A DNA stretch of 64,000 nt, from assembly GCA_964489835.1 (NCBI GenBank), contig CAZBBC010000008.1:10992-74991 (forward strand), given 5' to 3'. The translations under genes and the position numbers were made by a program. The notes under the pieces are model-generated. The model saw nothing but the letters and a program-made list of their open reading frames with translations, ran no database searches and was not told the DNA's origin. Shown here in pieces: positions 1 to 61,480 of this stretch (position 1 is its first letter; every line of letters begins with the position of its first letter). This stretch comes from an uncultured Calditrichota bacterium. GTDB lineage: Bacteria > Calditrichota > Calditrichia > JAJRVZ01.

Positions 1-1654
1 TATTTCCCGGCCAGTCATATTCCATAAACCGATCGTGTACATCCTCAGATATTTTTCGGATGTTTTTTTCGGTATTACGACTCAGACGTCTGATAAAATA
101 TTTAACTAAAATAGGTATGTCTTCACTTCGTTCCCGCAAGGAAGGCAGGTGGATTTGTACCGTATTCACTCTGTAATAAAGATCCGATCTGAATTTACCC
201 TGTAACATTAAATTCTCCAAATCGTGGTTGGTGGCTGTTACAAGACGAATATCTACTTTCAATGGTTCCGTATTCCCTATCCGTTGAATCTCACGTTCCT
301 GAAGTACACGCAATAGTTTAACCTGAATATTAGGTGGTAGTTCACCGATTTCATCTAGAAATAACGTTCCGCCTGATGCTAACTCGATCAAGCCCTTTTT
401 ATTGGTTAATGCACCGGTAAAAGCCCCTTTCTCATAACCAAACAATTCACTTTCCAGTAGAGTATCAGGAATAGCGCTACAATTAACAGCGATAAAATTA
501 CCTTTTATCCGGGTACTGTTCTTATGAATCGCCCGTGCAATCAGCTCTTTCCCTGTTCCTGTCTCTCCTGATATCAAAATGCTGATATCGGAAGGCGCGA
601 TCCGACGCATTAATTCAAAAACTTTTTGCATTCGCCTATTGGCTGATACGATACCATCAAAAACAAAGCGGTCCTCTGAATAAAACCAGTCATAAAAAGC
701 GGTTATTTCATTTTCAAGAAGATCTTCGATGGATTGCAGATAATCTTTCCTGTTTTTTGTATGTGTTTCGATCAATGACTTTATCTGGATACCGCTTTGT
801 ATAAACAAATTCGGTGTATTTGTTTCCTTAATTTTTGATAGACTTCTGGTAATACAAAAATAAATATATATGGCATCTCTATATTTCCTGGCCATGGGAC
901 CGATGATATCGAGTAAGTTATTTTCTGTATTTTGAAGGTCAATAACAATCAGATGTTGCGCGAGATGGTATTGAAATTGTTTAAAATTAATCGGAATACA
1001 TCCCAGTTTTAAAGCCAACTGGTAGGCTTTGTTAAAATCTTTATGATACACGTATAGTTTTTTAAATTCCCTTTGCTTTACAGATTGTATAATCTCTTCC
1101 AGATCTGAAACCCGGTCACCAATAAATACAAACGGGAAACTATCAAGTTTGCCGGAAATCTTTCTGGCGATATCAAGTAAAACCTCAGGAAAAACGATAC
1201 AATTTTTAACGATGACAGGATCATTTTGAAGGTGATTTCCAAATTCCTCACCCTGCCGGTACATTTTAGTGAGAATGGGTCCGATCGAATCTTCATCGAG
1301 TGCAATATTAAATTCTTCTTTAATACCTGATAATATCAGAGGATCTGCCGGAATTTCACCATTAAGACTTATCAGGTCTTCCAGAAAATGCCGAAGTGCT
1401 TCCTGATCCTTGTACAAATTTTTTATTTTTAATAGCGGATCCGGGGTATTCCCACTCAGACCATTTCTCAGCGCATCCGTGATCGCATCCAATCTTTGTC
1501 CAACCACAAAAACTTCAATAGAGTTTTTCTGCCTCAATAGCAGTATTTCATCGATATCTGAATTTCTAAAGTGGCGGTAACAGTTTTTTAACCACTTGAT
1601 GCTGTGAAGTGTTTCAGATTTTATGGGAAAAACATTAAAAGAATATATATGCAT
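1..1654 (-). CDS. Sigma-54-dependent transcriptional activator. Partial: the C-terminal HTH lies beyond the window start. The N-terminal ~330 aa is not a canonical receiver domain.
   Basis: Manual reverse-strand translation from ATG at 1654 gives an uninterrupted frame to position 1. It contains Walker [16 protein letters not shown], the sigma-54 interaction signature GAFTGA ([15 protein letters not shown]), and [12 protein letters not shown]. The track ORF 1078..1305 lies in another frame inside it. Confidence 0.85.
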
Positions 1655-1661
1655 AATGATA

Positions 1662-2480
1662 TCAATTAAATGAGTGAATACCTGAAAAATACTGGGTAAT
1701 AACCAACATAGAAAAAATAATCCATAAGAACCCGATCAGGCTGATATAGGACAATCTTTTACCATGCCAGCGATAATTTTTCTTTCCTAAAATAGCCAAA
1801 CCATAAAAAATCCAGGTAATTAATACGGAAATTAATTTGGGATCCCAGTCCCAGTATTTTCCCCAGGCAGAAATACCTGTAAATGACCCGGAGATAATAC
1901 CGACCGTGATAAATATAAATCCCACGAGAATCGCCTGGTAATTGATTCTTTCCAAATAAACCAGGGAGGGTAATCGATCATAAAAATATCCTAACTTTTT
2001 ACTCTTTATCTCATGAAATAACAAAATATACATGAATGCAACCAGAAAGGCGGATGAGAATGCAGCATAGCCTATCAAATTGATAATCACATGAATTTCA
2101 AATAGTCGATTATTCAAAACGCTGGGTAATGTTGTGCTGGTAGAAATAAAGAGCATCGATATACTCTGGAATATAAATAAGATCACTGCATAGAATAAGC
2201 CGAGGGAATAATCATCACTTTCGCGTACAAAGATTTTATTTAGTATCGCAAAAAAGAAAATAAAAGTAGACAGCGCTTTAAAAATACCCGTTAAAGGCAG
2301 GTGACCTGTATTCACAGTCAGAATGATAAGTAGCATCAGATGAACACAAATAGCGAGGATATTGAATTTTCTGGCCGTTTTCAAGTTGCCCTGATGCCCT
2401 TTATTAAAGTAAAGAAAGAAATAAACAGCACTCACCAAATAAACCAAAGGCGACAGAATCCTTAAAAGCATAAAAAACAT
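1662..2480 (-). CDS. Cytochrome c assembly protein, CcsA/HemX-like polytopic membrane protein.
   Basis: 272 aa, about 8 TM segments. Tryptophan-rich WWD-type motif GISAWGKYWDWDPKLISVL, characteristic of CcsA/CcmC heme-handling proteins. Confidence 0.65.
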   Translation of the reverse strand: MFFMLLRILSPLVYLVSAVYFFLYFNKGHQGNLKTARKFNILAICVHLMLLIILTVNTGHLPLTGIFKALSTFIFFFAILNKIFVRESDDYSLGLFYAVILFIFQSISMLFISTSTTLPSVLNNRLFEIHVIINLIGYAAFSSAFLVAFMYILLFHEIKSKKLGYFYDRLPSLVYLERINYQAILVGFIFITVGIISGSFTGISAWGKYWDWDPKLISVLITWIFYGLAILGKKNYRWHGKRLSYISLIGFLWIIFSMLVITQYFSGIHSFN

Positions 2481-2627
2481 ATCATTTCCTATGTTTCAAT
2501 ATGGACATAAATGTTTCATTATGGTATTTATTTACGATATAATTTTTAAATTGACGCTTCTAAATTAAGCCTAATTTAATGAATTATTGTCGTTTATAAA
2601 GATTTTTTTTGTTTTTTTCATTTTGGT

Positions 2628-4751
2628 ATGATTTTTGTAGTGTTTTATCCCTTATATTCAGGAGCATTTATGCGTTTTTACTTTTTTGTAATTTTATTCA
2701 TGCTAAATATTTACAATGTTTATTCTTCCGATATCAATGGGCGGGTAATCTCTTCCCTGAATGGAGCTCCTTTAATTGGCGCGAATGTATATTTAGGGGA
2801 TACGAACTATGGTGCAGCTACTGATCACAGGGGAATATTTGTTATTAATGATGTACCTCCGGGTTCTTACACAATAAATGTAACGTATGTTGGATATAAA
2901 TTAAAGGAAAATGTTGAGGTAATCGTTTACAGCGGTGAAAAAGTAAATTGTACGCTGCAAATGGACGAGGATATTTACGATTTGAATGATATCGTTGTAA
3001 CCGGCACAAGGACCAGGCGGCTGATAAAGGACAGTCCTGTGGCTACTGAGGTTATTCATGCCGATGAGATAGAAAACCTTGGGGCAGAAAATGTAGGTGA
3101 AGTATTGGAAGAAAGATCCGGTATTATTATTACACAGGATGGAGCCCGCGGCGGGTTGTTGAGCGCTCAATTGCAGGGTTTGAATGATAACCATACACTG
3201 GTTTTGGTTGATGGAGCGCCGATCATTGGTAGAATTGCCGGAAAACTTGATCTATCAAGAATATCGGTTCAAAATATCGATAGAATTGAAATTGTAAAAG
3301 GAGCGGCATCCTCCCTATATGGCAGTGAAGCAGTAGGTGGTGTTATCAATATCATCACAAAAGATCCAGAAGAAACTCTTAATTATTCTGGTAATTTAAA
3401 TTTTGGAAGTTTTGAGGCCCGGAATGCAAAAACAGATTTTTCTGTTGCCAGCAATAAAACAAGTCTGCTGTTCTCTGCCGAGACACATCGTGCCGATGGG
3501 TATGACTTAGATCCGAGCACAGAAAATACAACCTCTGATGACTATAATAACTATTCGATTTTCTCTAAGATTAAATATCGATCTTCTGAAACCTATTTTC
3601 TGCAGGCTAACGGCCAGTTCTTTAATCAGCGTCAACACGGCTTTGATGGCGGAGAACGTACAACCGATACGAGAAGCTGGTATTTAAATGTTAACAATCA
3701 ATGGGATTTGAACAACCATTCTTCTTTTAAATTCAGATTGTATTACACCTCATATACAAAAGAGATAGATCGTGCCGATGTTTATGTTGACAATATTGAA
3801 TCGCTCAGCCGGGGTGAATTTATTTATAATCGCGTGCTTTTAAATCATATACTCACAGTCGGTGGTGAGGGATCATACAATTTGCTTCAATCAAACCGCC
3901 TGGAAAGCGGTGAAAAATCTGTCAATAATTATTCATTTTATTTACAGGATGAAATATTTTATCAATGGATCGAATTTAATGTGGGATTTCGTGCTGATTT
4001 TCATTCAGAATTTAACTGGAACTATGCACCTAAAGTTGGATTTTTGTTAAAACCAAATGATACATTCCGAGTCCGTGGTTCTTATAGTTACGGATTTCGT
4101 GCACCGGATTTTATTGAATTATATCTTGATCTGGATCATTCCGGCCTTACTTCCCAACCTTATGGTAATTCTAGTCTGCAGCCTGAAACTTCCAGAAGTT
4201 TAAACCTGGGATTTGAGTATCATTATTCAGCACAGACCATCCTTAAAGTAAATTTATTCTATAATCATTTAGATAATATGATAAACAGTATATTTCTGTA
4301 TCAAAATACTGATGGTATACAATATTACACCTATGAAAATCTGGCTGAAGCTGAAACACAGGGGTTTGAATTTGACGGAATTATCAAGTTCTGGAATAAT
4401 TATCGTCTGACCAGCGGCTATACCTACACAGAAACATTCGATTTAGCCAGGGATGAACCCTTTTTTAATCGTCCAAAGCATTCCGCACGTGTGAAATTTG
4501 ACTGGAGATATTCCAAACTTGGATTTTCCGGCAATCTACGCTGGCGATATATCGGTAAACGCTTGTTTGTAAATTTTCAGGGTGAACAAACGACAGCCCC
4601 CTGGTATGCCACATGGAATACGCGTCTGCGTCAGATGATATACCATCCGTTTTCAGTCTATTTTGAAGTCACCAATATATTTGATTATCAAAATCGTAAT
4701 TTTGTCGCCTTACCCGGGCGTTTAATTTTTGTAGGAATTGAACTAAACTAA
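2628..4751 (+). CDS. TonB-dependent outer-membrane receptor with N-terminal carboxypeptidase-regulatory-like domain. True start is probably the MRFYFF signal peptide at about 2670.
   Basis: CarbopepD_reg-like NGRVISSLNGAPLIGANVYLGDTNYGAATDHRGIFVINDVPPGSYTINVTYVGYK. Plug-domain motifs DSPVATEVIHADEIE, LVLVDGAPI, IDRIEIVKGAASSLYGSEAVGGVINIITK. Long beta-barrel ending in aromatic-rich strands. AAGGGAG-like RBS absent at 2628, so the start is uncertain. Confidence 0.85.
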   Translation: MIFVVFYPLYSGAFMRFYFFVILFMLNIYNVYSSDINGRVISSLNGAPLIGANVYLGDTNYGAATDHRGIFVINDVPPGSYTINVTYVGYKLKENVEVIVYSGEKVNCTLQMDEDIYDLNDIVVTGTRTRRLIKDSPVATEVIHADEIENLGAENVGEVLEERSGIIITQDGARGGLLSAQLQGLNDNHTLVLVDGAPIIGRIAGKLDLSRISVQNIDRIEIVKGAASSLYGSEAVGGVINIITKDPEETLNYSGNLNFGSFEARNAKTDFSVASNKTSLLFSAETHRADGYDLDPSTENTTSDDYNNYSIFSKIKYRSSETYFLQANGQFFNQRQHGFDGGERTTDTRSWYLNVNNQWDLNNHSSFKFRLYYTSYTKEIDRADVYVDNIESLSRGEFIYNRVLLNHILTVGGEGSYNLLQSNRLESGEKSVNNYSFYLQDEIFYQWIEFNVGFRADFHSEFNWNYAPKVGFLLKPNDTFRVRGSYSYGFRAPDFIELYLDLDHSGLTSQPYGNSSLQPETSRSLNLGFEYHYSAQTILKVNLFYNHLDNMINSIFLYQNTDGIQYYTYENLAEAETQGFEFDGIIKFWNNYRLTSGYTYTETFDLARDEPFFNRPKHSARVKFDWRYSKLGFSGNLRWRYIGKRLFVNFQGEQTTAPWYATWNTRLRQMIYHPFSVYFEVTNIFDYQNRNFVALPGRLIFVGIELN

Positions 4752-4773
4752 TAACAACATAAGGGAGTCAGTT

Positions 4774-5325
4774 ATGAGGATTTTATCATTATTATTTTTA
4801 ATTGTGCCATTATTGATTCTATTCGGTTGCAGTACGAACGAAAATGATCCGATGGGTCCCGAGGATGAGGGCAGCACCTTAAAATTAACGGTAACAGCAG
4901 CAGAAAAATATTATATCAGCCTTTCAAAGCAGTCTACTATAGAAGTTGTTGATCCATTGACAAATTCTGAATGGGATCTGTCTATCGAGAATTTAACCAC
5001 AATTAAGCTCAATGGCGGTTCCACCGCACCTGGTTCTGTTTATGCTTTTGTCGTGGATGGAATTGCCTTTGAGGATCTAAACAGTGCCCCAGAAACCACG
5101 TATCTGACCGATGATCAAAACGGGCCGTATATTGGCGATAACTGGTATTTTTATGATATTACTACACACACGGTGAATCCACTGGATACGTATTATGTCA
5201 TCCTGGCGATGGATGGACATTTTTACAAGTTCAAAATAACCGACGCAGTCTTTAGCAGTCGAACCGACGGCGAATTAACCATTAAGATTGAAAAATTAGA
5301 TGCACCAGCCAGTTATGATATCTAA
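4774..5325 (+). CDS. Lipoprotein, possibly HmuY-like heme/tetrapyrrole-binding partner of the upstream TonB-dependent receptor.
   Basis: SD AAGGGAG 8 nt upstream. Signal peptide with lipobox LILFGC. Motifs WDLSIENLTTIKLNGGS and the C-terminal YYVILAMDGHFYKFKIT resemble the HmuY family (assigned from memory, not searched). Position immediately 3-prime of the TBDR. Confidence 0.45.
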   Translation: MRILSLLFLIVPLLILFGCSTNENDPMGPEDEGSTLKLTVTAAEKYYISLSKQSTIEVVDPLTNSEWDLSIENLTTIKLNGGSTAPGSVYAFVVDGIAFEDLNSAPETTYLTDDQNGPYIGDNWYFYDITTHTVNPLDTYYVILAMDGHFYKFKITDAVFSSRTDGELTIKIEKLDAPASYDI

Positions 5326-5439
5326 CCAACAACCGGACGGGTCATGCTATCCTTGTTACCATTGTCTTCAGAAGAATCATCCTTTTTTAATTTTAAGGAA
5401 ACAACGGAATAATTGGCAGATCATTCGATTAATTTTGGA

Positions 5440-5486
5440 AACGGTAGGATCAAATTATTTTGATCCTACCGTTTATCATTTTATTC
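5440..5486. terminator. Rho-independent terminator, bidirectional between convergent genes.
   Basis: Perfect 15-bp stem aacggtaggatcaaa / tttgatcctaccgtt with a 4-nt loop, followed by a T-rich tract tatcattttatt. Confidence 0.6.
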
Positions 5487-5498
5487 TGTAGCAACCAT

Positions 5499-6260
5499 TT
5501 ATTTAAGCTCAATCAATGGTGCTTTAATACCAGTCGGCTCTAAATTTTTTGCTTCTTCTCTTCTCAAAATTTCCTGATACTTTTTTTCATCGATGGCTGC
5601 AAAATATTTCGTCGATGCATTTTCTATCTCTCTTCTCTTAGCCAATTTATTATCGACTAATATTTCCACCATTTTTTCCAGCTCATGCATGGTATAATTA
5701 TCTCTGATTTTTACCACGTCATATAATTCCGTTAAAGTCTGTGGACTTTTGCTCCACAATTCTCTCAATACCGGAAGTGCCGTCCTCGATTTTTTAATAT
5801 CTATAGCACTGATTTCTGTCTTTAATTGTACTAACAAATATTGACCGGCTAACTGTAAGGCGATAAAAGCTACCGGCAGTATGGGAAGAAAAGCAGAGTC
5901 CCGTGGCCTGTTCATGATTAAATTTAATTCATCTCTTACCTGACGGGGTATATAACTGGATGATTGTCTAAAATCGAGTTCAAAAGGATTTTTTGGCATG
6001 AAATTCGGAGAAATAAAATTATAAATATCTAGAATCTTTGCGTCATTATTCAAATCAATATATGTATCAGATAAATCTTCCCAGTTCCGGAGAGGTAAGA
6101 TTGGCTTTGAAAATTGCAGGCCGGTTGATTCCGTACCCTCTTTTTCAATTCGGTAGTGAGGAATTTTTAGACCAATCTGTGCAAATGCTATTGAAAAATT
6201 AATAAAAATTATAATCGCACCACACAGGTAATATATGATAGGGTGTTTTTTTCTTTGCAC
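5499..6260 (-). CDS. Hypothetical protein with N-terminal membrane anchor.
   Basis: 253-aa ORF with one N-terminal TM (IIYYLCGAIIIFINFSIAFA). No recognisable catalytic motif. Confidence 0.45.
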   Translation of the reverse strand: MQRKKHPIIYYLCGAIIIFINFSIAFAQIGLKIPHYRIEKEGTESTGLQFSKPILPLRNWEDLSDTYIDLNNDAKILDIYNFISPNFMPKNPFELDFRQSSSYIPRQVRDELNLIMNRPRDSAFLPILPVAFIALQLAGQYLLVQLKTEISAIDIKKSRTALPVLRELWSKSPQTLTELYDVVKIRDNYTMHELEKMVEILVDNKLAKRREIENASTKYFAAIDEKKYQEILRREEAKNLEPTGIKAPLIELK

Positions 6261-6328
6261 GACTTGAACACCTGGCAGATATTCGACTCACAAAAATGAA
6301 TATTAAAGAATAATTGAAAACTTGGAAA

Positions 6329-6541
6329 TTATTTTTCCTCTTCTGATTTTGGTGCTTCACTGGTTTTCAGGTGATCCGTATCATCTATTTTTAATTCTTC
6401 CTGAATTTCAGTACTTGCTTTTTTAAATTCCCGGATACCCTTCCCCAGTCCTTGTGCTAATTCCGGTAACTTTTTTGCACCGAAAATTAATAAGATGATA
6501 AACATGATAATAATGAGTTCAGTGGTTCCTATTCCAAACAT
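6329..6541 (-). CDS. tatA: Twin-arginine translocase subunit TatA/E.
   Basis: [42 protein letters not shown] matches the TatA N-terminal TM plus amphipathic-helix signature, with an acidic C-tail. Confidence 0.9.
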
Positions 6542-9873: not shown

Positions 9874-11169
9874 CTAAATCAATCCAACTTTTTTGAATAT
9901 ATGGTCAAGATTTTTTAGTCGATTTTCCAATTTAAACAATTCGTTGATCTCATTTTTTGATAATGTATGGCCAAGTTCTTTATCATTAAACAACGCTTGC
10001 TTAAATGAGAGTTGTTCATCCCATACCTTCATCGCATTACGCTGGACAATGCGATAGGCATCTTCACGACTCATTCCCTTACGGGTTAAAGCAAGCAATA
10101 CTGCCTGCGAGAATAGCAGACCATGGGTTAAATCCATATTTTTGATCATATTTTCCGGATATAATTTAAGATTTTTTATTAGCCCAATGGTCTTTTTCAA
10201 CATATAAAATAGAGTAATGGTCGAATCCGGCAGAATGACTCTCTCAACGGAAGAATGTGAAATATCTCTTTCATGCCAGAGGGCCATATTTTCCATCGCC
10301 GCTAAAGCATTTCCGCGCAGCAGACGTGACATTCCGCTAATACGTTCACTGATAATCGGATTTTTCTTATGTGGCATAGCAGAAGAACCCTTCTGCCCTT
10401 TCGAAAAGAATTCACTGGCTTCCAGAACCTCGGTTCTCTGTAAATGTCTGATTTCTACGCTTATTTTTTCCAGACTTCCGCCTATAAGTGCAAGTGTGCT
10501 GACATAGTGTGCATGCCGATCACGTTGAAGTATTTGAGAAGAAATGTTAGCGGACCGGAGGCCCAGCTTATCACATACATAATCCTGTATATAGGGATCA
10601 AGATGATCATAGGTTCCCACAGCTCCTGAAATTTGACCTACTCTTATGTTTTCGATCGCCTGCACCAGGCGCTCGAGTTGACGTTGTAGTTCATCATACC
10701 ACAGGGCGAATTTCAGGCCAAAAGTTATCGGTTCTGCGTGAACCCCATGCGAGCGTCCAACCATCACCATATTTTTTGTCTCTATTGCCCGTTTTTTCAG
10801 CACTAAAATCAATTCTTCAAGTTGTTCCCGGATCTTTTCTCCGGCCTGCACCATTTGGACAGCCAATGCCGTATCAAGAACATCAGAAGAGGTCATCCCG
10901 TAATGCATATATCTGGCATCTTCGCCCACATATTCAGCCACATTGGTCAAAAATGCAATGACATCATGTTTTACTTCTTCCTCGATTTCAAGAATGCGAC
11001 TGACCTCGAAATTAGCCTTTTTTTGGATCGTGTCCAATGATGACGAGGGAACAATACCCAAAGCTGACAATGCCTCGACGGCCAGGACTTCAATTTTTAA
11101 CCAGATAGAAAATCTATTTTTATCACTCCAGATATTCCCAATTTCCGGGAGAGTATACCTTTCAATCAT
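9874..11169 (-). CDS. purB: Adenylosuccinate lyase.
   Basis: MIERYTLPEIGNIWSDKNRFSIWLKIEVLAVEA is a typical PurB N-terminus. Fumarate-lyase signature GSSAMPHKKNP. Confidence 0.9.
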   Translation of the reverse strand: MIERYTLPEIGNIWSDKNRFSIWLKIEVLAVEALSALGIVPSSSLDTIQKKANFEVSRILEIEEEVKHDVIAFLTNVAEYVGEDARYMHYGMTSSDVLDTALAVQMVQAGEKIREQLEELILVLKKRAIETKNMVMVGRSHGVHAEPITFGLKFALWYDELQRQLERLVQAIENIRVGQISGAVGTYDHLDPYIQDYVCDKLGLRSANISSQILQRDRHAHYVSTLALIGGSLEKISVEIRHLQRTEVLEASEFFSKGQKGSSAMPHKKNPIISERISGMSRLLRGNALAAMENMALWHERDISHSSVERVILPDSTITLFYMLKKTIGLIKNLKLYPENMIKNMDLTHGLLFSQAVLLALTRKGMSREDAYRIVQRNAMKVWDEQLSFKQALFNDKELGHTLSKNEINELFKLENRLKNLDHIFKKVGLI

Positions 11170-17152: not shown

Positions 17153-17280
17153 ATGATTTCCCTAATACAATCCGCTACGGGAGGATATTGCATAGAAGTG
17201 ATATTATCCTGAAATGTCATTCCTGTCCCTTCCTGTATTGTAAAAAATAACCACCACGCCAATAGGCGGGCAGGCAGAGT

Positions 17281-17470
17281 GCACGAAGGACACGAAGTTT
17301 TTAAATATTATCATAATTTTTGTGCTAACCCCGCTTTAGATTAAAGAATTATCAATAAAAGATCTTCGTGAACTTCGTTTGCTCTGTGGTGAAAGATTTT
17401 TATATGTTCTATTTTGATCGGCCATAGGCCGTCGCTCACCCGAAGGGCAAGCCTAGGGCCTCTGTGGTTG
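17281..17470. repeat. MITE-like element with CACGAAG-type terminal inverted repeats.
   Basis: gcacgaaggacacgaagtt ... gatcttcgtgaacttcgtttgctctgtggt ... cctctgtggttg. The termini match those of the elements at 50621-51010 and 63831-64000. Adjacent gtcattcctgtcccttcctgt (17215) recurs at 18541. Confidence 0.6.
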
Positions 17471-18441: not shown

Positions 18442-18454
18442 CTATTGTAATGTA

Positions 18455-18760
18455 TTTTTACTCTTCTATGTTATTTATTTACAATCCTCTAACCCCCTTT
18501 TCTGGGGCTGTTGTAAAACTAGCGAAAAAGACCAAAACTGTCATGCCTGTCCCTTCCTGTCATTCCTGCGAAGGCAGCAATCCAGAAGGGATAAACTCCA
18601 GCAGTGATCCATGTTAACAAACCACCTAAGTGTCTGTTTTTTATGGATTCCTCCCGCTCCATGAGCGGGACGGGAATGAAAGTTCGTTACGCATATTAAC
18701 AAACAAGGTCTGATTTTAAGGGGAGACTTAATGGTCGCCATATGCTATATTTAAAATTCA
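18455..18760. repeat. Composite of intergenic repeat modules (families C and E).
   Basis: ctcttctatgttatttatttacaatcctctaacccccttttct is near-identical to 41516-41560. tgtcatgcctgtcccttcctgtcattcctgcgaagg matches 17215. ttttaaggggagacttaatggtcgccatatgctatatttaaaattcatga matches 61681-61735 and, inverted, 27245-27300. Hairpin tcccgctccatgagcggga. Confidence 0.6.
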
Positions 18761-18916
18761 TGATTTATTTAGACTAACTAATAGTTTTATTATTTACTAA
18801 CTTTTTATAATCATCCATCGTATTAATATTAAAAAACAGGTCAGAAATATACCCAGCATTTTTAAAATCTACAAATTTGACGTTTAATTTTTCAATATGG
18901 TATAAGAGAATTTTCC

Positions 18917-19426: not shown

Positions 19427-21598
19427 TTATTTTTTATTATCCAAATCAGATTTTTCCCTTCGATTGTCTATATCCTTTTGTTCGCTTTCTGTTTTATCGT
19501 CAGGAGATTTTATACTTTTATCATTTTCCGGCTTTATAACTTTATTTATATTTTCTTTTTGTAACGTTGAAGATAGAGAGTCTACAGCCGGTTTTGGTGA
19601 AGACAAAGAATCCGCGGCCGCTGGTAGTGGTATATCTTCTTCGACAGGTGGTTCCTTTATCTTGTTCTTGGCAATCTTGCCAATTTCCGAACTAGGATAT
19701 TCTTTCGCTGCCAGGGTATAAGCATCAACAGCACCCTGAATATCCTGAATTTTCGTTTCATATATCCAGGCAATAACATATCTGGACTTCTGTGCGAGCA
19801 TACTGCCGGAATCCTCATTAGCTATCTGTCTGAAAATATCAATCGCTCCAAGATATTTCTCCTCCGAAATCAATTTTTCGCCTTGCAAAAAAAGATTTTT
19901 GTACGTTAATATTTCATCCTCGTCTTCGGTTGTATCCTCTTTTGGTCCAACTAAATAAGCGGCATATGGCGATTCCGGATAATCCAAGAGAATAATTTGT
20001 TTGATCGAATCAGCTTTGTCAAATAATTGCAGACCGTAATTATAAGTATAATAGAGAGAATAATACGCCTTGGGCACCAGAATCGAGTCGTTAGATGATT
20101 TGATGAATTTCTGATATGCTACTGCTGCACTGTCGTAATTAACAAGAGTGAGCAGGAAGAATTCAGCCATGGAAAACATGTTTTTCTTAAGAGATTTTTC
20201 TATATCAGCGGCAAATCTAATCACCGGCTTTTTAGCCGGCTTTGCTGTTTCTTTTCCTTTTATTTTTGTTTCATTTACAGCTTTCTCAAATTCAGATCTA
20301 TCAAATTCAACCGCATTAATTTCAGCTGTATCAATTTCAGCCGCATTAATTTCAGCTGCATTAAGTTCAGCTGCATTAATTTCAGCCGCATTAATTTCAG
20401 CTGCATTAATTTCAGCCGCATTAAGTTCAGCTGTATCAATTTCAGCGTATTCCAGCCCCAATGAATCAAAAGCGAGACTATCGGTATTAATTTTTTCCAA
20501 ATCGGCTAAATCACGTTCAATATTCGTCCTGATCTTCCGATACTTGTCTAAAATGCCCGCTCTTTTATCCGCCTCTTCTTTGAATTCTGTATCTCTGTAT
20601 TCCTTTCCGACCTTTTGATATAATTTTTTTGCAGAATCAATATTCACATAATAAAATTCCATTAACTTTGCCATCCCGTAAGCAGCAATAGCAGATCCTT
20701 CTGTTCGGGGATAGGTTTCCATTACTTCATTATAAACATCGGTCGCCTCGGGAATCTGATCTTTGATGACATAGATATCTCCAATCCGTGCATTGATCAG
20801 GGCTTTTTTATCTAAAAATTTACCTATTTGGGCAATTTCTTCGAGAATTGTTATTGCCCGGTCCTGTTCATCCAGTTCAATCAGGCAATCCACCTTTCTC
20901 ATGTTCGCGTCATAAAGTATTTCAACCGATGTATCAAATTCATTGACACCATCATATCTGGTCAGAGCCTCCGAATAATTCTGTTCATTATAATAGGTTT
21001 CTGCAATAAGGAATTGTGCTTTGGCTTCCAATTCCTCATTACTGGAATTCTCAATGATCTTATCAAATTGAACACGTGCATTTTTGTAGTCTTCATTTTT
21101 ATAATATATTCGTCCCAAATTATGATAGGCCTCAGCAGTCAAATCATCATCATCATCAGAAGAAATCACTCTGTTCAGGTATTCCAGCGCTTCATCATCC
21201 CGATCCATTTCTATCAATGCCATCGCTAACAATAAGTAAGCTTCAGTGATCCACTCACTATTTTTATATTTTGCATTAAACTGTAATAAATATCTTTCTG
21301 CTTTCGGGTACTCTTTAACCTGATAATAGCTCTTTCCAATCAGGAGCAACGCTTCATCCGCATAGCTACTACTATCACTGTAGATATTTATCAGCTTCCA
21401 GCATTTATCAATGGTTTTGTAAAAATCGTTGCGTATATCCGATGTGATTTCGCCATCCCGACTACTTTTTATTTTTTTAACACCTTCCTCATACTTTTCC
21501 TGGGCATTGAAAAGCGTATTATAGTAGGCACATCCAACGATCATCACCAAAGGCATTAAAAATAAATAAATTGTTTTTCGCATTCTCATCATGATCAA
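19427..21598 (-). CDS. TPR-repeat lipoprotein with an internal (N/D)(A/T)AE(I/L) pentapeptide tandem-repeat tract and a Lys/Asp/Pro-rich low-complexity C-terminus.
   Basis: Lipobox MIVGC. Multiple TPR-like helices (AEAYHNLGRIYYKNEDYKNA etc.). Central tract AEIDTAELNAAEINAAEINAAEINAAELNAAEINAAEIDTAEINAVEF. C-terminal PKPAVDSLSS...KSDLDNKK. Confidence 0.7.
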   Translation of the reverse strand: MIMMRMRKTIYLFLMPLVMIVGCAYYNTLFNAQEKYEEGVKKIKSSRDGEITSDIRNDFYKTIDKCWKLINIYSDSSSYADEALLLIGKSYYQVKEYPKAERYLLQFNAKYKNSEWITEAYLLLAMALIEMDRDDEALEYLNRVISSDDDDDLTAEAYHNLGRIYYKNEDYKNARVQFDKIIENSSNEELEAKAQFLIAETYYNEQNYSEALTRYDGVNEFDTSVEILYDANMRKVDCLIELDEQDRAITILEEIAQIGKFLDKKALINARIGDIYVIKDQIPEATDVYNEVMETYPRTEGSAIAAYGMAKLMEFYYVNIDSAKKLYQKVGKEYRDTEFKEEADKRAGILDKYRKIRTNIERDLADLEKINTDSLAFDSLGLEYAEIDTAELNAAEINAAEINAAEINAAELNAAEINAAEIDTAEINAVEFDRSEFEKAVNETKIKGKETAKPAKKPVIRFAADIEKSLKKNMFSMAEFFLLTLVNYDSAAVAYQKFIKSSNDSILVPKAYYSLYYTYNYGLQLFDKADSIKQIILLDYPESPYAAYLVGPKEDTTEDEDEILTYKNLFLQGEKLISEEKYLGAIDIFRQIANEDSGSMLAQKSRYVIAWIYETKIQDIQGAVDAYTLAAKEYPSSEIGKIAKNKIKEPPVEEDIPLPAAADSLSSPKPAVDSLSSTLQKENINKVIKPENDKSIKSPDDKTESEQKDIDNRREKSDLDNKK
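20296..20458. repeat. About 10-11 copies of a 15-bp tandem repeat (consensus TTCAGCYGCATTAAK) inside the TPR-lipoprotein gene.
   Basis: Read directly: ttcagccgcattaatttcagctgcattaagttcagctgcattaatttcagccgcattaatttcagctgcattaatttcagccgcattaag... The repeat is in frame and encodes the AEINA pentapeptide. Confidence 0.9.
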
Positions 21599-25928: not shown

Positions 25929-27020
25929 TTACCGAAGGAGTATCATTTTCTTTCCATCCTGAAATTCACCAGCCTCAATCCTGTACAGGTAAACGCCACT
26001 TGCGAGATTGCTCCCATCAAACGTATAGGTATGATTTCCCGCCTGTAGTTTCTTATTCACAAGTGAAGCAATTTCTCCTCCAAGAATGTTGTAGATCTTG
26101 AGAGTAAGAAAAACTGACTGGGGTAATGTGAATTCGATAGTGGTTGTTGAATTGAATGGATTTGGGTAGTTCTTTTCTAAAAAATAGATTTCAGGATTAT
26201 GATCATTCGATTGGATACTCAAAGGTGAAGGGCTGCCTGCATTTTCCCATGCTGTTCTCCAGAGACTGGCAAGATCTAATATTGCTTTTTGAATAGAAAC
26301 TGTTGTTAAATGTTCAAGATCTTGCCATAAAATATTATAATAAGTTATATTGAAAGTGGGATCCTGAGCGCTGGCAAGATCATCTGCAATCATAATACTA
26401 TCCACATAGGGATAAATTTCTTCAATATGTAAAAAAACAGTATCAATAACATTTGACCAGTATTTTCCTGTGCCTGTTGCTAAGGGTAGTTGTGAAAGAT
26501 GTGGATTTATCATCTGTGTTTCATATCGTGAATGAATACCATCATTTCCTGTGTGTTGCCCATTATAATTTAAAGTCAGATGCAATGGCTGGTGAGAATC
26601 TGCCACATAATGTCCCAGTTCAGCTGCAATTTGCCAAACATCATCCCATTGACCAGCTGCCATTAATGTGCTTAAACTATCTGTCCACTCTTCAATAATC
26701 CAGGGGATAATGCCGTTATTTTGAACAATTGAAAGGTCGTAAAGCGTTATTAAACTATCCAAATTATGCGGAAGAGTCCCGGTAAAAAATTCCGGATAAT
26801 AATCAATATCAATATAATGATAGTATCCCGGTAATGGATCGGTATCCGGATCGACCGAATGTTGTTGCAGATAATTTCGATGATCCTGAAAAAACGACAT
26901 TTCAGTAGGTAGATAATCTACCGCATGTTCATTTATATAACCATGTGTATCCCATCCCCATTTTTTATTTTGGGCCAATAGTGAGGAACATACCATGAGA
27001 CTTATTAAAAAGTATTTCAC
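25929..27020 (-). CDS. Secreted S1/P1-nuclease / zinc phospholipase-C-superfamily-like protein with type IX secretion (T9SS) C-terminal sorting domain.
   Basis: Signal peptide. N-terminal WGWDTHGYINEHAVDYL resembles the Zn-binding start of P1 nuclease/PLC. C-terminal about 80 aa NYPNPFNSTTTIEFTLPQSVFLTLKIYNILGGEIASLVNKKLQAGNHTYTFDGSNLASGVYLYRIEAGEFQDGKKMILLR is a typical Por_Secre_tail. Confidence 0.7.
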   Translation of the reverse strand: MKYFLISLMVCSSLLAQNKKWGWDTHGYINEHAVDYLPTEMSFFQDHRNYLQQHSVDPDTDPLPGYYHYIDIDYYPEFFTGTLPHNLDSLITLYDLSIVQNNGIIPWIIEEWTDSLSTLMAAGQWDDVWQIAAELGHYVADSHQPLHLTLNYNGQHTGNDGIHSRYETQMINPHLSQLPLATGTGKYWSNVIDTVFLHIEEIYPYVDSIMIADDLASAQDPTFNITYYNILWQDLEHLTTVSIQKAILDLASLWRTAWENAGSPSPLSIQSNDHNPEIYFLEKNYPNPFNSTTTIEFTLPQSVFLTLKIYNILGGEIASLVNKKLQAGNHTYTFDGSNLASGVYLYRIEAGEFQDGKKMILLR

Positions 27021-27239
27021 AATATTTTATCTTTATAATAAATTTTTACTATTCCTGATTTTCGATGGTTCAATTACAATGTGAATCTTATAAGATAAAC
27101 AGCAATTTAACTTTTATTCAAATTTAAATAAATAGAAGTACCGTAAAAAATTACAGGGATTTCCTATTCCAGGTAATAGACGCGATAAAAAGAAAAGTGC
27201 TATTAATTATTTTACTAAAGTCATTGAATTAATAAATCA

Positions 27240-27400
27240 GTTAACCTGGTTAATTCATGAATTTTAAATTCATCAAGTAGCGACAGTAAAATCTCCCCTT
27301 AAAAAAGGGATTAAGGGATTGTAAAATTTCGATTATCCTATAACCTTTTTTGATAGACAACCCCCCGCCCCCTTTTCTAAGGGGGAGTTAAATAATTGAT
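27240..27400. repeat. Intergenic repeat modules of family C (inverted orientation) with a poly-C/poly-G hairpin.
   Basis: ttaattcatgaattttaaattcatcaagtagcgacagtaaaatctccccttaaaa is the reverse complement of the 18700-18740 / 61681-61735 module. ccccccgcccccttttctaagggggag matches 41540-41570. Confidence 0.6.
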
Positions 27401-27661
27401 TTCATGGAAGTTATTGAATCTGACCTTAAGATTTGTGAATAATTCAGGTTAATTGATTTACATTATAATATAAAAAGGTATTGGAATACAGTAAAAATAA
27501 TCGAAATACGCCCATATTTTAGTTCTAAGAGGCTAAAATAGGTGGTGGGAGTATTATATATATATTTATAATCTTGTGTGCATTCTGAGAGAGGTGGTGC
27601 TAATAGCATAATAGGAGGAATAGATCAGATCTTACGGTTATAACTTGTAATTAAGGATAAT

Positions 27662-28681
27662 TCATTTAGCGTCAAAGCATACCACCTTAGCCAGCTGACT
27701 TTTTCCGGGCATTGATATCATTATTTTATTCTCGGTAAATTGAATCACCCGCCAATTATTCGGATCACTACTAAAACCGCCGGTCTCACATTGAACAATT
27801 TTATGCCCGGAAGGAAAATCTATTTGCTCGATAACATTTTTGTGACCATGACCAACAAAAATCGCTTTAATGGTAGTATTCTCGTTGAGTACCTTGAGCA
27901 AACCCTTCGAACAACTCTCTGCATCCGGCCAGTCTAAATCATTTGATTTAAAATAAATGCCATCACCGTTTTTATCGCCAACGGGTAGATAAATATGCAT
28001 ATAAATAACAATCGGTTGGTTACCGGCATCTTTGACCTGATGAACTAACCAGTCCATCTGGGATTTATCGATTTTTCTGGCATCATCATGCAGGCTATAG
28101 CCATTATCGAGGAAAATAAAACGATATTTCGTGGTTCCAACCCCGAAATCACGGGAATAGTAAGTACCATTCTGAAAGCAAGGGATGTTTCGTATCCAGG
28201 TCGCCCGGGCTTTGTTTGCATTTAGCTGAGAATGGGTATATATCTTGGTCGAATCATCCTCATCAACCCAATAACTATTAATATCATGATTTCCCAGAGT
28301 CATATATATTGGAACGGGACAAAAATTATATAGAGGATAAAATTGTTCGATTTGGGTTGCCAGAAAACCACCACCGGATGTTTTTGCTTCATAAAAATCA
28401 ACGATATCCCCTGTCAGGATGACAGCATCGGCCTCTTGACTATCAGGAATGGTGTTAAAAAATGTGATTAGTGGCTTCGTCCCGTCACCATAGTGTTGCC
28501 TGGCATCGATAAATTCGGGTTGATAATTGTTCAGGTTACAAATGTGTGTATCGGTGATATGTAATATTTTCAGAGTATCGGAGGCGTTCTGTCCAAATCC
28601 GGCTGAGAAACATAACAAATTTGATATCAGTACCCAATGCCAATAATATATTCCCTGTGATAAATATTTGTGACGCTCCAT
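27662..28681 (-). CDS. Calcineurin-like metallophosphoesterase, secreted.
   Basis: LHITDTH, GDIVD, GNHD, GHGH metallophosphatase motifs, with N-terminal signal. Confidence 0.8.
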   Translation of the reverse strand: MERHKYLSQGIYYWHWVLISNLLCFSAGFGQNASDTLKILHITDTHICNLNNYQPEFIDARQHYGDGTKPLITFFNTIPDSQEADAVILTGDIVDFYEAKTSGGGFLATQIEQFYPLYNFCPVPIYMTLGNHDINSYWVDEDDSTKIYTHSQLNANKARATWIRNIPCFQNGTYYSRDFGVGTTKYRFIFLDNGYSLHDDARKIDKSQMDWLVHQVKDAGNQPIVIYMHIYLPVGDKNGDGIYFKSNDLDWPDAESCSKGLLKVLNENTTIKAIFVGHGHKNVIEQIDFPSGHKIVQCETGGFSSDPNNWRVIQFTENKIMISMPGKSQLAKVVCFDAK

Positions 28682-32757: not shown

Positions 32758-33124
32758 TTTTTTACTCCAATAAATTATACTATGTAATTCTAATTATTTT
32801 AAACTTAAAGTCTTATCTCTTTTTTTCTGTATTATTACCACAAAAAACTTGATTATTTAAGCACCCTTTCGATGTCATTCAGTCCGCCGGGAGACGGATC
32901 CGCTTACTGGCCTGAAAGGAATCTTTCAAATTGTTGGCTAAATCCAACAAGAAAAAAGATCCTTACAGGATGACAAAATTAATTATTTTTTGTCTGCAGT
33001 TTTATGCTATTATAGCCAAAAACTTCGTTATTTTTTAAAAAATTTTTTTATTTTAGCAAAATTTTTGCTACTTGGATTATTCATTTCTCGCAGCGGCGCA
33101 GAGACACGACTATTTATAAATAAT

Positions 33125-33240
33125 TATTTTAGTTTTAATCCGTGTTAATTCGTGTCAGTCTTCGCCTGATCCGGCGTAGACGGATAATCCGTGGACAAAT
33201 TCTTTTTTTGATTGCAGCCAACGGCTGCGGTATGAATAAT
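33125..33240. repeat. Family A miniature intergenic repeat element (forward orientation).
   Basis: ttttaatccgtgttaattcgtgtcagtcttcgcctgatccggcgtagacggataatccgtggacaaattctttttttgattgcagccaacggctgcggtatgaata is near-identical to 61762-61868, and inverted to 54508-54615. Confidence 0.85.
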
Positions 33241-33245
33241 TAAGT

Positions 33246-33779
33246 TTAATTATAACAAATCAATGATAATATATCGTATTCGTTTATCAACTCCCGGCCT
33301 TTCAGAAAGCCCAATTCGATCAGGAATAAAATCGCTTCAACTTTCGCCCCTGATCTTTCGATCAAATGACAGGATGCCCGGGCAGTACCGCCGGTTGCCA
33401 GCAGATCATCAACGAGAAGCACTCTTGCACCGTGTTCGATGGCATCGGCGTGGATCTCGACGCTGTCCGTCCCATACTCCAGTGAATATTCTTCACGGAG
33501 AATTTTAGCCGGGAGTTTACCGGGTTTTCTGACAGGAACAAAACTTTTATTCAATTTATAAGCCAAAGCAGATCCAAAAATAAATCCTCTTGATTCAATT
33601 GCCGCGACGATATCAAACGATCTGTTTTTTATCAAATCATGTAACTGATCGATTGATTGAGCGAACAGATCAGCATCCTTTAAAAGCGTTGTGATATCTT
33701 TAAAGATGATACCCTTCTTGGGAAAATCCGGCACATCACGGATGGATGCTTTTAGTCTTACTATTTTATCTTCGTTCAT
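33246..33779 (-). CDS. apt: Adenine phosphoribosyltransferase.
   Basis: PDFPKKGIIFKDIT and PRPP-binding VLLVDDLLATGGTARA. Confidence 0.9.
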   Translation of the reverse strand: MNEDKIVRLKASIRDVPDFPKKGIIFKDITTLLKDADLFAQSIDQLHDLIKNRSFDIVAAIESRGFIFGSALAYKLNKSFVPVRKPGKLPAKILREEYSLEYGTDSVEIHADAIEHGARVLLVDDLLATGGTARASCHLIERSGAKVEAILFLIELGFLKGRELINEYDILSLICYN

Positions 33780-41305: not shown

Positions 41306-41454
41306 TATCTGTATTTTTATTAATTTTTTAATAAGCTACGTTTAAGTTAGTGTCAAAATTAATCACATATATTCTATATAAATTATTATTTTTAAAGAGT
41401 ATGAACTAATTCCCCCTTAGTAGGAATTGTTGCAGATTTGATTTATTGGCACAA

Positions 41455-41700
41455 TTTATCAGAATTGCATGATCTGTCTCCCCCTTGATAAAGGGGGACT
41501 AAGGGGGATATATACTCTTCTATGTTATTTATTTACAACCTCCTAACCCCCTTTTCTAAGGGGGAATAGATTTTACTTAATCGATGTTTCAAATGAACTT
41601 TTTCTAAAAAATAACCTAAACTCCAATAGCCCAATAAATGGGATTAGTCCCCCTTTTCAAAGGAGGAGACAGAGCTTTCATACATCAAAAGCTGCACGAA
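41455..41700. repeat. Family C repeat cluster (poly-C/poly-G hairpin modules).
   Basis: tctcccccttgataaagggggactaagggggat (matches 61585-61620), ctcttctatgttatttatttacaacctcctaacccccttttctaagggggaat (matches 18461-18510), and gattagtcccccttttcaaaggaggagaca. Confidence 0.7.
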
Positions 41701-41771
41701 TAAAGTGAAACTGTAATAGCCCATGGTAATGAAGAGTTATTGATTTTTTTCATAAATCCAGGTATTACTCC

Positions 41772-43511
41772 TTATTCTGATGAGGCTCCAGCTTCCGTCA
41801 AGGTAGTTTTTTCTCGTGTAAAGAATTTCACCAAACCCTCGATAATGATCCAGGTCACAATCAGAATGATGGCCGAATTGATCACCTGGAGAAGAATATT
41901 ATTATCGGCGCCAAATTCGATTTGATTCATTAATGACGCCCAGAGAGTCATTACGGACATAAATACAGCCGGAATACCTGTTATCAACCATTTCAGACCA
42001 TTTTTTTTGCGCAGATACAGCGTGGCCAAAATAAGAGCAAGCGCAGCCAATGTCTGGTTAACCGCTCCGAACAGAGGCCAGAGGGTCAGGGCACCCTTCC
42101 CATCGGCACCTGAGGCAAAAGCCAGCAGAGCAGCGGAAATAACAGCAGCAGAAGTAGCTACATGGCGATTTTCGACATGTTTGATCTTTAAATCAGAACC
42201 CAGCTCACTGATAACATACCTTTGAATTCTGGTGGCCGTATCAAGAGTTGTTCCGGCAAAAGAGGCGACAAAGACACCCATGATGACTACGGCAACACCA
42301 TGAGGAATTCCCAACGCTGAAATCATATTAGCAGCACCGATGACGAAAGCACTGATTTTTGATCCAAGTCCGGCGGCAGCGGTCCAGGAAGAATAGTGAC
42401 TCGACCAGGCGCTGATACCGGTTAAAGTCTCGCCATTGGTTGAGTATCCCATACCAATGCCGGCGGCAACGGCGATAATTACCAGGGTAGCCAGTGCTCC
42501 CTCAATAAGCATCGAACCATAACCAACAAATAAAGAATCGCTTTCATGTTGCACCTGTTTTGCGGATGTTCCCGATGCGACCAAAGAATGGAAACCGGAA
42601 ATTGCCCCGCAAGCGATCGTAATAAAAAGAAATGGCCAAACCGGAGGCGCGTCCGGCGGGGAAAATTGAACCGCCGGGGCAACCATTTCCATCCCACCAA
42701 AAATTGTTGCGATGATAACTCCCAATGCCAGTAAGAACATAGCAATTAGAAGTTGATAAGCATTGATGAAATCTCTTGGTTGTAAAAGTGTTGTCACCGG
42801 CAGGACAGAGGCAATATAAGCATATATAAACAGAATGATCGTCCAAACACCGGTCGCCGGTAATCCGAAGACTGCGGGCATCGTAATGGGTAAATAGCTG
42901 CCGATTATCATCGTGAGATACAATAAAATAACAGCAATAATTGACCAGAAAAATACATCCCTGCCCTTTTTGTAAATCAAATGACCCAGGTAAATGGCAA
43001 TTGGAATTTGCAGCCAAACGGCTAAAACGGAGGTCGGAAACATGCTAAAAATGATCGCTATGACGAGACCAAATATAGCAATAACGATCCATAACGTTAA
43101 AAATACAATCAAAAAAAAGAAGACACGTGTACGCCGGTTAATATATTTCGCAGTAATTTCAGAAATTGATTTACCGTCATTCCGCATGGAAATGATCAAC
43201 GAACTAAAATCATGAACCGCTCCCATAATCGCAGAGCCAAGGAAAACCCAAATCACAGCTGGTATCCATCCCCAAATAATGGCAATGGCCGGTCCAACAA
43301 TAGGGCCGGTGCCGGCAATGGAAGTAAAATGATGACCGAAAATGATTTCCTTGCGCGTGGGGACATAATCGACACCATCCTCCAGCCGGACGGATGGTGG
43401 GATCCGGCTATCTGATATTCCGAATATTTTCTTGCCGATAAATTTCCCGTAAAAACGATAAAAAAGCATATACCCGATAAATGTTAAGATCATTACCGTT
43501 ATGGCTAACAT
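41772..43511 (-). CDS. cstA: Carbon starvation protein A (peptide/pyruvate transporter family).
   Basis: N-terminus ...VDYVPTRKEIIFGHHFTSIAGTGPIVGPAIA is the CstA hallmark. About 16 TM. Confidence 0.85.
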   Translation of the reverse strand: MLAITVMILTFIGYMLFYRFYGKFIGKKIFGISDSRIPPSVRLEDGVDYVPTRKEIIFGHHFTSIAGTGPIVGPAIAIIWGWIPAVIWVFLGSAIMGAVHDFSSLIISMRNDGKSISEITAKYINRRTRVFFFLIVFLTLWIVIAIFGLVIAIIFSMFPTSVLAVWLQIPIAIYLGHLIYKKGRDVFFWSIIAVILLYLTMIIGSYLPITMPAVFGLPATGVWTIILFIYAYIASVLPVTTLLQPRDFINAYQLLIAMFLLALGVIIATIFGGMEMVAPAVQFSPPDAPPVWPFLFITIACGAISGFHSLVASGTSAKQVQHESDSLFVGYGSMLIEGALATLVIIAVAAGIGMGYSTNGETLTGISAWSSHYSSWTAAAGLGSKISAFVIGAANMISALGIPHGVAVVIMGVFVASFAGTTLDTATRIQRYVISELGSDLKIKHVENRHVATSAAVISAALLAFASGADGKGALTLWPLFGAVNQTLAALALILATLYLRKKNGLKWLITGIPAVFMSVMTLWASLMNQIEFGADNNILLQVINSAIILIVTWIIIEGLVKFFTREKTTLTEAGASSE

Positions 43512-50587: not shown

Positions 50588-50620
50588 CTCCCACCTAATA
50601 TTTAGTATTAACCCAGTGAA

Positions 50621-51010
50621 TTTATAAACCACAGAGGACACGAAGGAAGCAAATAACAATATTTAAACCATTCAATCATTTTAATAATCATTTTCTGATT
50701 ATGTCCTTAACTCCACAAAAATCCTATAGATTGCTTTCCGCCTCAGCGGATCAGCCGAGGCTGACGCTAACGTTCGCAATGACGATAATGAGTTGGTCAG
50801 TGCGAATCTCGAATAGTGAATATTTGGCCTGTCATCTGGGAAGGACCTTCTTATGTGATCGTATCATACCGACACTTTAAAAGATCCCTACGGGATGACA
50901 GGAATGCTTTCACATGTGGCGTTTCACGTCTGACGTTTGACGTCTCACTATAAATTTAATTATTCAATATTCTTTCTTTTCTTCGTGAACTTCGTGCACT
51001 TCGTGGTTGC
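50621..51010. repeat. About 390-bp composite MITE-like element with terminal inverted repeats.
   Basis: Left end tttataaaccacagaggacacgaaggaagc. Right end cttcgtgaacttcgtgcacttcgtggttgc (inverted). The interior carries family E modules (gtcatctgggaagg ... gggatgacaggaatg) and gtttcacgtctgacgtttgacgtctcac. Confidence 0.65.
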
Positions 51011-54452: not shown

Positions 54453-54507
54453 TTATTCCTCCAGAATTAAACTTTTAAAATATCTATATGCATAATTAGC
54501 CTAACCT

Positions 54508-61414: not shown

Positions 61415-61480
61415 TCGATAAAATTTGTGAGATTATATGTTATTCTAACCAAAAACTTTGTTATTTCCGCCCCAGCGATT

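Follow-up and report, generated by a model that had tools for sequence, protein, structure and literature searches.

The window, that is, the whole stretch of 64,000 nucleotides analysed here, has a GC content of 39.7% and carries nearly all of its genes on the minus strand. Its CstA protein (41772-43511) shares 72-76% identity with its best named relatives, from Caldithrix and Calditrichaceae, and 83% and 93% identity with closer relatives, which places the organism among the uncultured Calditrichota. The repeats under study, termed Family C, occupy four loci, all intergenic and between co-directional housekeeping genes: the spacers between an rlpA-like gene and the thioredoxin gene (18442-18916), between a metallophosphoesterase gene and the gene for a T9SS-tailed phospholipase C-like protein (27021-27661), between cstA and the gene for a DUF7990/ArsA-like ATPase (41306-41771), and between the genes for a sugar-phosphate isomerase and a sugar ABC ATPase (61415-61884). 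Elsewhere in the window, a 15-nt tandem repeat of at least 10 units (20260-20469) lies within a TPR/TolA-binding-like gene (19427-21598) and encodes (A-E-I/L-N-A)n, and a 132-aa open reading frame (ORF; 48594-48992) that matches only positions 262-373 of a TonB-dependent receptor barrel is probably a gene fragment, the corresponding region of the related locus L151 having an ORF of more than 908 aa.

Composite elements in the four spacers

The original prediction described hairpins with poly-C and poly-G arms, a 55-bp unit and a 45-bp module at these loci. The hairpins are real, the pattern CCCCCTT-N4-AAGGGGG-N1-4-RGGRGG having four exact matches in the window and none in 100 shuffles, and their stems are of 7 bp (CCCCCTT/AAGGGGG), not the 5-6 bp first proposed, closed by 4-nt loops. 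With the second G tract and the TTGT or ATT tail that follow, each hairpin forms a 30-nt unit that we call the H module (consensus ATGAnTTAAnTCCCCCTTAnAAAAGGGGGTTAnGGGGTTGTAAA, from an alignment of nine hairpin-bearing stretches; general form CCCCCTT-N4-AAGGGGG-N1-4-AGGGGG-ATT/TTGT), which can also be read as one inverted and two direct copies of a 9-10-mer, AGGGGGnnn(n). The 55-bp unit (U unit) also proved genuine (three matches versus none in shuffles) and lies at 18714-18768, 27250-27304 and 61680-61742, but it is absent from 41455-41700; when the repeats within the window are compared, its pairwise identities are 77%, 85% and 73%. The 45-bp module is nearly identical at its two sites, as proposed (90% over 50 nt, with a 26-nt core that has two identical matches versus 0). 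All the named features are present, at levels far above chance, but the intervals first given cut through larger units: the true elements span 27242-27451, 61528-61742 and 41425-41629.

The first of these larger units, C1 (about 215 bp), emerged when metagenome contigs were searched with the opening part of the 55-bp unit alone, which gave 26 stretches. Flanking terminal inverted repeats (TIRs) are present in 24 of them, together with an inverted doublet of H modules and the far TIR wherever the contig is long enough; the stretches share far more than the query, and the U unit and the two inverted H modules are thus parts of one element. The remaining two stretches (L128, with 60% GC, and L144, with no further similarity) are chance matches. 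The 24 stretches, on contigs of 34-43% GC and in differing contexts, stand for 21 distinct further sites. The window's own sites appear as L132 and L147, and three loci were each met in two samples (L137/L149, L139/L148 and L129/L138). Copies are thus not confined to one contig, and the suggestion of recent spread held up: the modules belong to dispersed, TIR-bounded elements at many unrelated sites, whose occupancy varies among relatives.

C1 is bounded by TIRs of 20-25 nt (TAACCTGAnnnATTCATGAA/TTCATnAATnATTCAGGTTA; the ends can also be given as TAACCTGA...TCAGGTTA) in which 78-90% of pair cells are complementary across eight copies, and TA stands at both ends of nearly every copy. The sequence shared by the copies starts with TAACCTGAnnnATTCATGAATTTTAGATTTATCAAATAGCGACAGTAAAGTTT, continues with CCCCTTAAAAAAGGGG-ACTAAGGGG-TTGTAAAGC and a spacer of about 30 nt, and proceeds through ACAACCCCC-TAA-CCCCCTTTGCTAAGGGGG and AATTAAATCGTTGA to TTATGAATAATTCAGGTTA. 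Its plan, which a second element described below follows as well, is an imperfect inverted duplication: a TIR, a linker, an H module and a poorly conserved spacer of 30-45 nt, followed by the same parts inverted. Of eleven complete copies recovered, the canonical ones measure 213-216 nt and are 67-90% identical to one another (mean 82%); nested insertions extend others to 239-281 nt, and fusion of the two hairpins leaves a single short form of 105 nt. The spacer between the H modules is much less conserved than the arms.

Searching the 64-kb window with a profile HMM built from eight canonical copies returned two full C1 elements, one C1 arm and a doublet core at 41478-41568 and, beyond weak matches to two solo remnants described below, nothing else. 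The complete copy at 27242-27451 (plus strand, about 210 bp; nhmmer E=8e-54, model positions 2-214, supported by alignment) consists of the 5' TIR TAACCTGGTTAATTCATGAA, the U unit, a degenerate H module (27294-27325), a spacer of about 35 nt, an inverted H module (27361-27385) and the 3' TIR GTGAATAATTCAGGTTA. That at 61528-61742 (215 bp; E=8e-61) lies on the minus strand, like the flanking genes, and comprises the 5' TIR (61723-61742), the U unit (61680-61742), H modules at 61650-61690 (minus) and 61594-61619 (plus) and the 3' TIR (61528-61548); in BLAST it is 80-85% identical to canonical-length copies at L125, L130, L134, L140, L142 and L148. The arm (TIR and U unit; 18714-18776, minus strand; model positions 2-64, E=1e-10) is cut short within the first hairpin, after CTCCCCTTAAAA.

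Several C1 copies (L131, L137/L149, L143 and L145) have been invaded by other repeats: three different small hairpin modules are inserted at one point of hairpin 2, and a 33-nt module, CGCCGGCAGGCGAATCCGCCTACTGGCGTGATT, sits in the loop of hairpin 1 in this set. H hairpins thus serve other mini-repeats as landing sites. In this the inserted modules resemble the small dispersed repeats (SDR) of Nostoc reported by Elhai and colleagues in 2008, which are said to be very small, hairpin-forming and prone to insert into other repeats, and were described only in cyanobacteria. At L143, two inverted C1 copies (455-727 and about 3650-3890) bracket three ordinary ORFs (807-3617), which may be a composite arrangement.

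The second element, C2 (about 205 bp; 41425-41629, plus strand), shares the hairpin doublet and the plan of C1 but differs in its ends, CTGTTGCAG/CTGCAACAG as read in L249; in the window the TIR-like ends are TTGTTGCAG and CTCCAATAG, the latter a degenerate CTGCAACAG. Its core consists of an H module at 41480-41507 (plus), a spacer at 41508-41538 (P module), which is the 45-bp module of the original prediction, and an H module at 41539-41564 (minus); this core matches the C1 profile with E=4e-13 and folds as DNA with z=-3.1. BLAST places C2 at three different loci, with non-orthologous matches at L249 4422-4626 (75%), in the EngB-oxidoreductase spacer, and at L136 2887-3118 (72%). Two solo remnants flank it on the plus strand, each a weak nhmmer match: an arm-like ATGAACTAATTCCCCCTTAGTAGG (41402-41422) and a degenerate H hairpin, CCCCCTTTTCAAAGGAGGAGAC (41635-41671), whose counterpart in the relative L120 has a perfect stem (CCCCCTTGGAAAAGGGGG) and which is followed by a module common to L126 and L136.

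Other repeats share these spacers and the rest of the window. A second dispersed family (TCCACGGATTATCCGTC...) has 131-nt arms, 89% complementary, at 33123-33253 and 54492-54622, and occurs also at 61741-61849, 53298-53332 and 58778-58819, one copy adjoining C1 at 61.7 kb. Short repeats with a 9-nt period (TTCGTGNNN, CCACAGAGGACACGAAGGA, AATCCGTGAAATCCGTGG) lie at 17363-17390, 50980-51007, 50601-50647, 63809-63855 and 61495-61521.

The thioredoxin upstream region and site occupancy in relatives

The interval 18455-18760 combines three pieces: a C2 fragment, a hairpin element of the unrelated type GTCATTCC...GGAATCC (18536-18690) and the C1 arm. The C2 fragment (18459-18520, minus strand) contains TTTACAACAG, a degenerate H module (CCCCAGAAAAGGGGGTTAGAGGA) and the P spacer (TTGTAAATAAATAACATAGAAGAGTA), and is identical over 26 nt to 41513-41538 and 90% identical over 50 nt. 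Elements of the GTCATTCC...GGAATCC type are also found at 17212-17236 and in L122 (11850-11930), similar modules adjoin H modules in the Nitrospirae loci L023 and L035, and their translation yields the peptides of the WIAAFAGMT and SFLRRQQS type seen in junk ORFs.

BLAST alignments with L248 and L249 break at 18458, the edge of the C2 fragment, where the homology upstream of thioredoxin starts; it resumes inside GTA(T)AAAATACAT, likely the -10 region of the thioredoxin gene. Given this break, the C2 fragment supplies everything upstream of the -10 box, including a TTGTAA hexamer 18-19 nt upstream of it, at -35 distance. On the strength of this junction, C2 fragment and -10 box may together form a hybrid promoter, which a consensus promoter scan does not list. 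L248 and L249 have an intact NTP_transf_3 gene between the rlpA-like and thioredoxin genes; the window keeps a 103-nt remnant (18794-18896), and a repeat mosaic of 335 nt replaces the 198 nt that follow in L248. The remnant, from the 3' end of the gene, is 94% identical to L248 4741-4843 and L249 3075-3178, the neighbouring coding DNA being 84-90% identical. What the comparison points to is repeat-driven remodelling, by which the NTP-transferase gene was lost and the region upstream of thioredoxin rebuilt.

The other spacers also vary among relatives. C2 is present between cstA and the DUF7990 gene in the window and in L120/L121 (about 93% nucleotide identity, with few substitutions), and the same spacer in L122 (83% CstA identity) has 265 nt and other repeat families. 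The isomerase-ABC spacer measures 470 nt with C1 in the window versus 165 nt without C1 in L151, where a hairpin of H-like plan with another stem, AGTCCCTCTCTTTCCAAGAGAGGGATTTAGGGCGAG, lies at 9885-9925; this would suggest a wider superfamily built of a hairpin, ATTT and a partial repeat of the 3' arm. L248, L249 and the window each have a different content in the EngB-oxidoreductase spacer. The orthologous spacers of relatives differ wholesale, and a clean empty site was not recovered. Where orthologous copies can be compared, they are well conserved: the window and L120 share 94.0% identity in the cstA spacer and 81.2% at third codon positions of cstA, and the C1 copy of L137/L149, one locus met in two samples, has an identity of 97-99%, compared with 94-95% in the flanking sequence. 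Such above-neutral conservation hints at constraint or co-option, as opposed to pure junk.

The H module beyond Calditrichota

H modules extend far outside this lineage. When one genome was scanned for each species, they turned up in at least 119 stretches belonging to well over a dozen phyla, cultured isolates included; carriers among those listed are Cyanobacteria, Desulfobacterota (Geomonas, Citrifermentans), Nitrospirota, Nitrospinota, Planctomycetota (Brocadiaceae), Calditrichota, Bacteroidota, Chloroflexota, Patescibacteria, Myxococcota, Elusimicrobiota, several Proteobacteria and others. The pattern is carried by 96 stretches in IMG/VR, versus 2 and 8 for two composition-matched control patterns. 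Features that the search pattern did not impose are conserved as well: among the matches listed, the second tract reads AGGGGG in 122 of 141 cross-phylum copies, and the next three bases are ATT, TTG, ATC or ATG in 92% of them. The modules are mostly intergenic (32% of copies in open frames of at least 150 codons versus 84% of random positions, among the matches listed). Tail-to-tail doublets around unrelated spacers occur in Geomonas, Thiobacillaceae and Dehalococcoidales (also in L019, L030 and L047) as well as in this genome, at 27294-27385, 41480-41564 and 61594-61690, and Nitrospinota and others have fully palindromic forms. This distribution is not explained by a lineage-specific MITE (miniature inverted-repeat transposable element).

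One precedent exists. The genome paper of Geobacter bemidjiensis lists a 'conserved multicopy nucleotide sequence', AAGTCCCCCTTTGCGAAGGGGGATTAGGGGGATTTC (Gbem_R5001-5006), in six intergenic copies and leaves it uninterpreted (Aklujkar et al., 2010, PMC2996986, Table S6). Its hairpin, second G tract, ATT tail and intergenic position make it the same as the H module, yet that description covers six single copies in one genome, with no doublet, TIR-bounded element or cross-phylum range (PMC2996986). A literature search for the motif strings in main texts returned nothing relevant. A REP-like palindrome of Caldithrix abyssi, AACCGTTgaAACGGTT, is a different motif, and resemblances to KOPS, Chi, CsrA sites, attC and the anti-Shine-Dalgarno sequence were set aside, the spacing, orientation or sequence not matching.

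In the Brocadiaceae stretch L065, four H modules (3782-4359) and a CCCCCGCTGGCGGGGG hairpin lie inside an open frame of 2147 codons (5-6448), which may reflect in-frame insertion, as with the palindromic elements of Rickettsia, or two genes fused by chance. Repeats of the 9-nt-periodic kinds flank H modules there and in L015 (Nitrospinota), so several mini-repeat families seem to co-travel across phyla.

Origin and possible roles of the elements

We consider it likely that two related elements of the MITE type, non-coding and non-autonomous, underlie Family C in this Calditrichota genome and are present there both as complete copies and as fragments. The elements are small (105-281 nt) and have no coding capacity (only four ORFs of at least 30 codons, of 31-36 aa, overlap them, and none lies within an element), and they are dispersed, with three window sites and 21 further distinct C1 sites (24 stretches). 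No transposase, RAYT or integrase is encoded among the roughly 49 ORFs of the window or, among the matches listed, the 150 ORFs flanking H modules in other phyla, no cognate autonomous element lies between TIR pairs in the fetched loci, where the only inverted C1 pair is that in L143, 3.4 kb apart, and BLAST of the element against plasmid and phage records gave no match. Mobilisation would be in trans, through an enzyme whose gene lies elsewhere in the genome, either a DDE transposase acting on the TIRs (the TA ends would fit TA-duplicating MITEs of the IS630/mariner type and Correia elements) or an enzyme that recognises the H hairpins. The TA at the C1 ends may mark a target-site duplication or may simply belong to the TIR. 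Recombination between shared modules would then have shuffled, truncated and deleted copies, giving rise to the mosaics at 18.4 kb and 41.4 kb and to the loss of a neighbouring gene, and some copies, such as the C2 fragment at 18459 near thioredoxin, may affect expression as a side effect. Points against this reading are the above-neutral conservation of orthologous copies, the low conservation of the spacer between the H modules relative to the arms, and the occurrence of the H module across phyla.

Correia elements (CREE/NEMIS) of Neisseria are non-coding, intergenic repeats of 100-220 bp with TIRs of about 25 nt and TA ends, found in either orientation; internal deletion yields long and short forms, promoters can arise at their ends, and they can form hairpins when co-transcribed. 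No mobilising enzyme is known for them. C1 and C2 resemble them in size, TIRs, TA ends, intergenic position, both orientations and length forms, and in the potential for promoters at the ends and for hairpins upon co-transcription, and differ in TIRs without evident sequence relation, in an interior GC-hairpin doublet that is common to other phyla, and in their host, a member of the Calditrichota. As elements, then, C1 and C2 are MITE-like, probably mobile mosaic repeats, selfish DNA of an ordinary kind, new as a family in Calditrichota; the only unusual part of the finding is the cross-phylum H module that serves as their shared core and insertion target.

That core raises the possibility, which we regard as real though not likely, that the replicating unit is the inverted H doublet itself, as in REPINs, and that the TIRs of C1 and C2 are secondary; the enzyme in this case would be an HUH tyrosine transposase (RAYT or IS200/IS605 type), encoded in single copy and recognising hairpin and tail on single-stranded DNA. 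The H module is a 30-nt imperfect palindrome with a sequence-conserved tail, doublets stand tail-to-tail around unrelated spacers in several phyla and fold as one long hairpin, C1 and C2 have the doublet in common and differ in their ends, and the repeated insertion of small hairpin modules into H hairpins suggests single-strand chemistry targeted to hairpins. REP/BIME and REPIN-RAYT systems likewise comprise short GC-rich imperfect palindromes with a conserved flank, inverted doublets that form a long hairpin, mosaics in spacers and above-neutral conservation (Bertels and Rainey, 2011, PMC3116915). Against this, no Y1/HUH transposase (Y1_Tnp) was found in the roughly 49 window ORFs or, among the matches listed, in 150 neighbours of H modules, although a single-copy RAYT could lie anywhere in the genome; the H modules lack a conserved 5' tetranucleotide of the GTAG type; and conservation in this lineage reaches past the doublet to the TIRs and the U unit. 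Unlike REPINs, the doublets lie inside longer TIR-bounded units, and the module crosses phyla instead of being lineage-specific.

Alternatively, the elements, or at least the H modules, may be cis elements used by the host, as mRNA-stabilising or attenuating hairpins, sites bound by a conserved DNA- or RNA-binding protein or portable promoter parts, their similarity then reflecting selection and not mobility. We find this rather doubtful, even though orthologous copies have diverged less than synonymous sites or flanks, the stems are invariant and the loops variable, the layout of AGGGGGnnn(n) repeats resembles multi-protomer binding sites, the C2 fragment stops precisely at the -10 box of thioredoxin and brings TTGTAA 18-19 nt upstream, and in G. 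bemidjiensis the six copies are distributed over five spacers, of which four separate co-directional genes, so that the module is 3' of one gene and 5' of the next (PMC2996986, Table S6). Among the matches listed, the genes beside H modules are functionally unrelated (197 Pfam families in 150 flanking ORFs, none occurring more than four times, with no enrichment of transposases in other phyla), and the modules have no orientation bias relative to co-directional neighbours (21 same, 28 opposite); moreover, relatives do without the elements at the same spacers. Scans for sigma-70 promoters and for terminators remained at shuffle level for three of the four spacers, that at 27000-27680 having 10 promoter consensus matches versus 4.5 +/- 1.9 in shuffles, and the P module fails the -10 criteria; as a consequence the promoter idea comes down to the junction with relatives. 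Nor do the hairpins look like intrinsic terminators, the H tail being AGGGGG and not U-rich. Terminator-like matches were few (counts of 1-3, and six in all), most without a U run; of the six, two fall on canonical H hairpins (41547 and 61595) on the plus strand, opposite to the genes, and the three on the minus strand belong either to degenerate hairpins (two at 27294-27318) or to another repeat family (61503-61521). As for the protein-binding site of the original prediction, the invariant stems and the conserved tail would suggest sequence-specific recognition, most simply by a mobilising enzyme.

The small RNA also considered there fared worse. The helices do not vary, and we therefore used the profile HMM and explicit counting of base pairs in place of a covariance-model search. 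That the unit of about 215 nt is a multi-copy gene for a structured small RNA or a riboregulator is highly improbable: stable hairpins can form (90% of proposed pair cells are paired in eight C1 copies; folding z-scores -1.9 to -3.1), but the three internal helices have 16 invariant pairs out of 21, only one pair is doubly changed, covariation does not rise above shuffles (388 of 500 reach the observed score), Rfam returned only a tRNA at the gathering threshold and, in an E-value search, only sub-threshold matches to plant miRNA precursors, which are typical of long inverted repeats, the copies tolerate insertions of 26-60 nt in both hairpins and an internal deletion of 110 nt, and C1 occurs in both orientations relative to genes in the window, its two strands scoring as near-palindromes with the profile HMM. 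Invariant stems without covariation, random orientation and the empty Rfam result thus leave a structured RNA unsupported, and a DNA repeat that is non-autonomous and moved in trans is the simplest account.

For this Calditrichota genome, such repeats explain several long, GC-spiked spacers that are prone to mis-annotation, among them the spurious ORFs that the repeats generate, for example at 27250-27360 and 41533-41634. The H module further provides a cheap and specific marker for unexplained tiny hairpin repeats in Cyanobacteria, Desulfobacterota, Nitrospirota, Planctomycetota, Calditrichota, Bacteroidota and others. We put forward only tentatively, as an unlikely extension, that the module is the real entity, a sequence-conserved hairpin shared by well over a dozen phyla and viral contigs, recognised by one widely shared machinery (a horizontally travelling HUH-type enzyme or a universal host factor) and forming the core of lineage-specific MITEs as well as a preferred landing site of other mini-hairpins. 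If true, the H module would be a pan-bacterial family of ultra-small mobile or co-opted DNA, noted only once and without explanation, and if one enzyme or host factor recognises it, it would offer a tractable entry to the cross-phylum spread of repeats of less than 40 nt.
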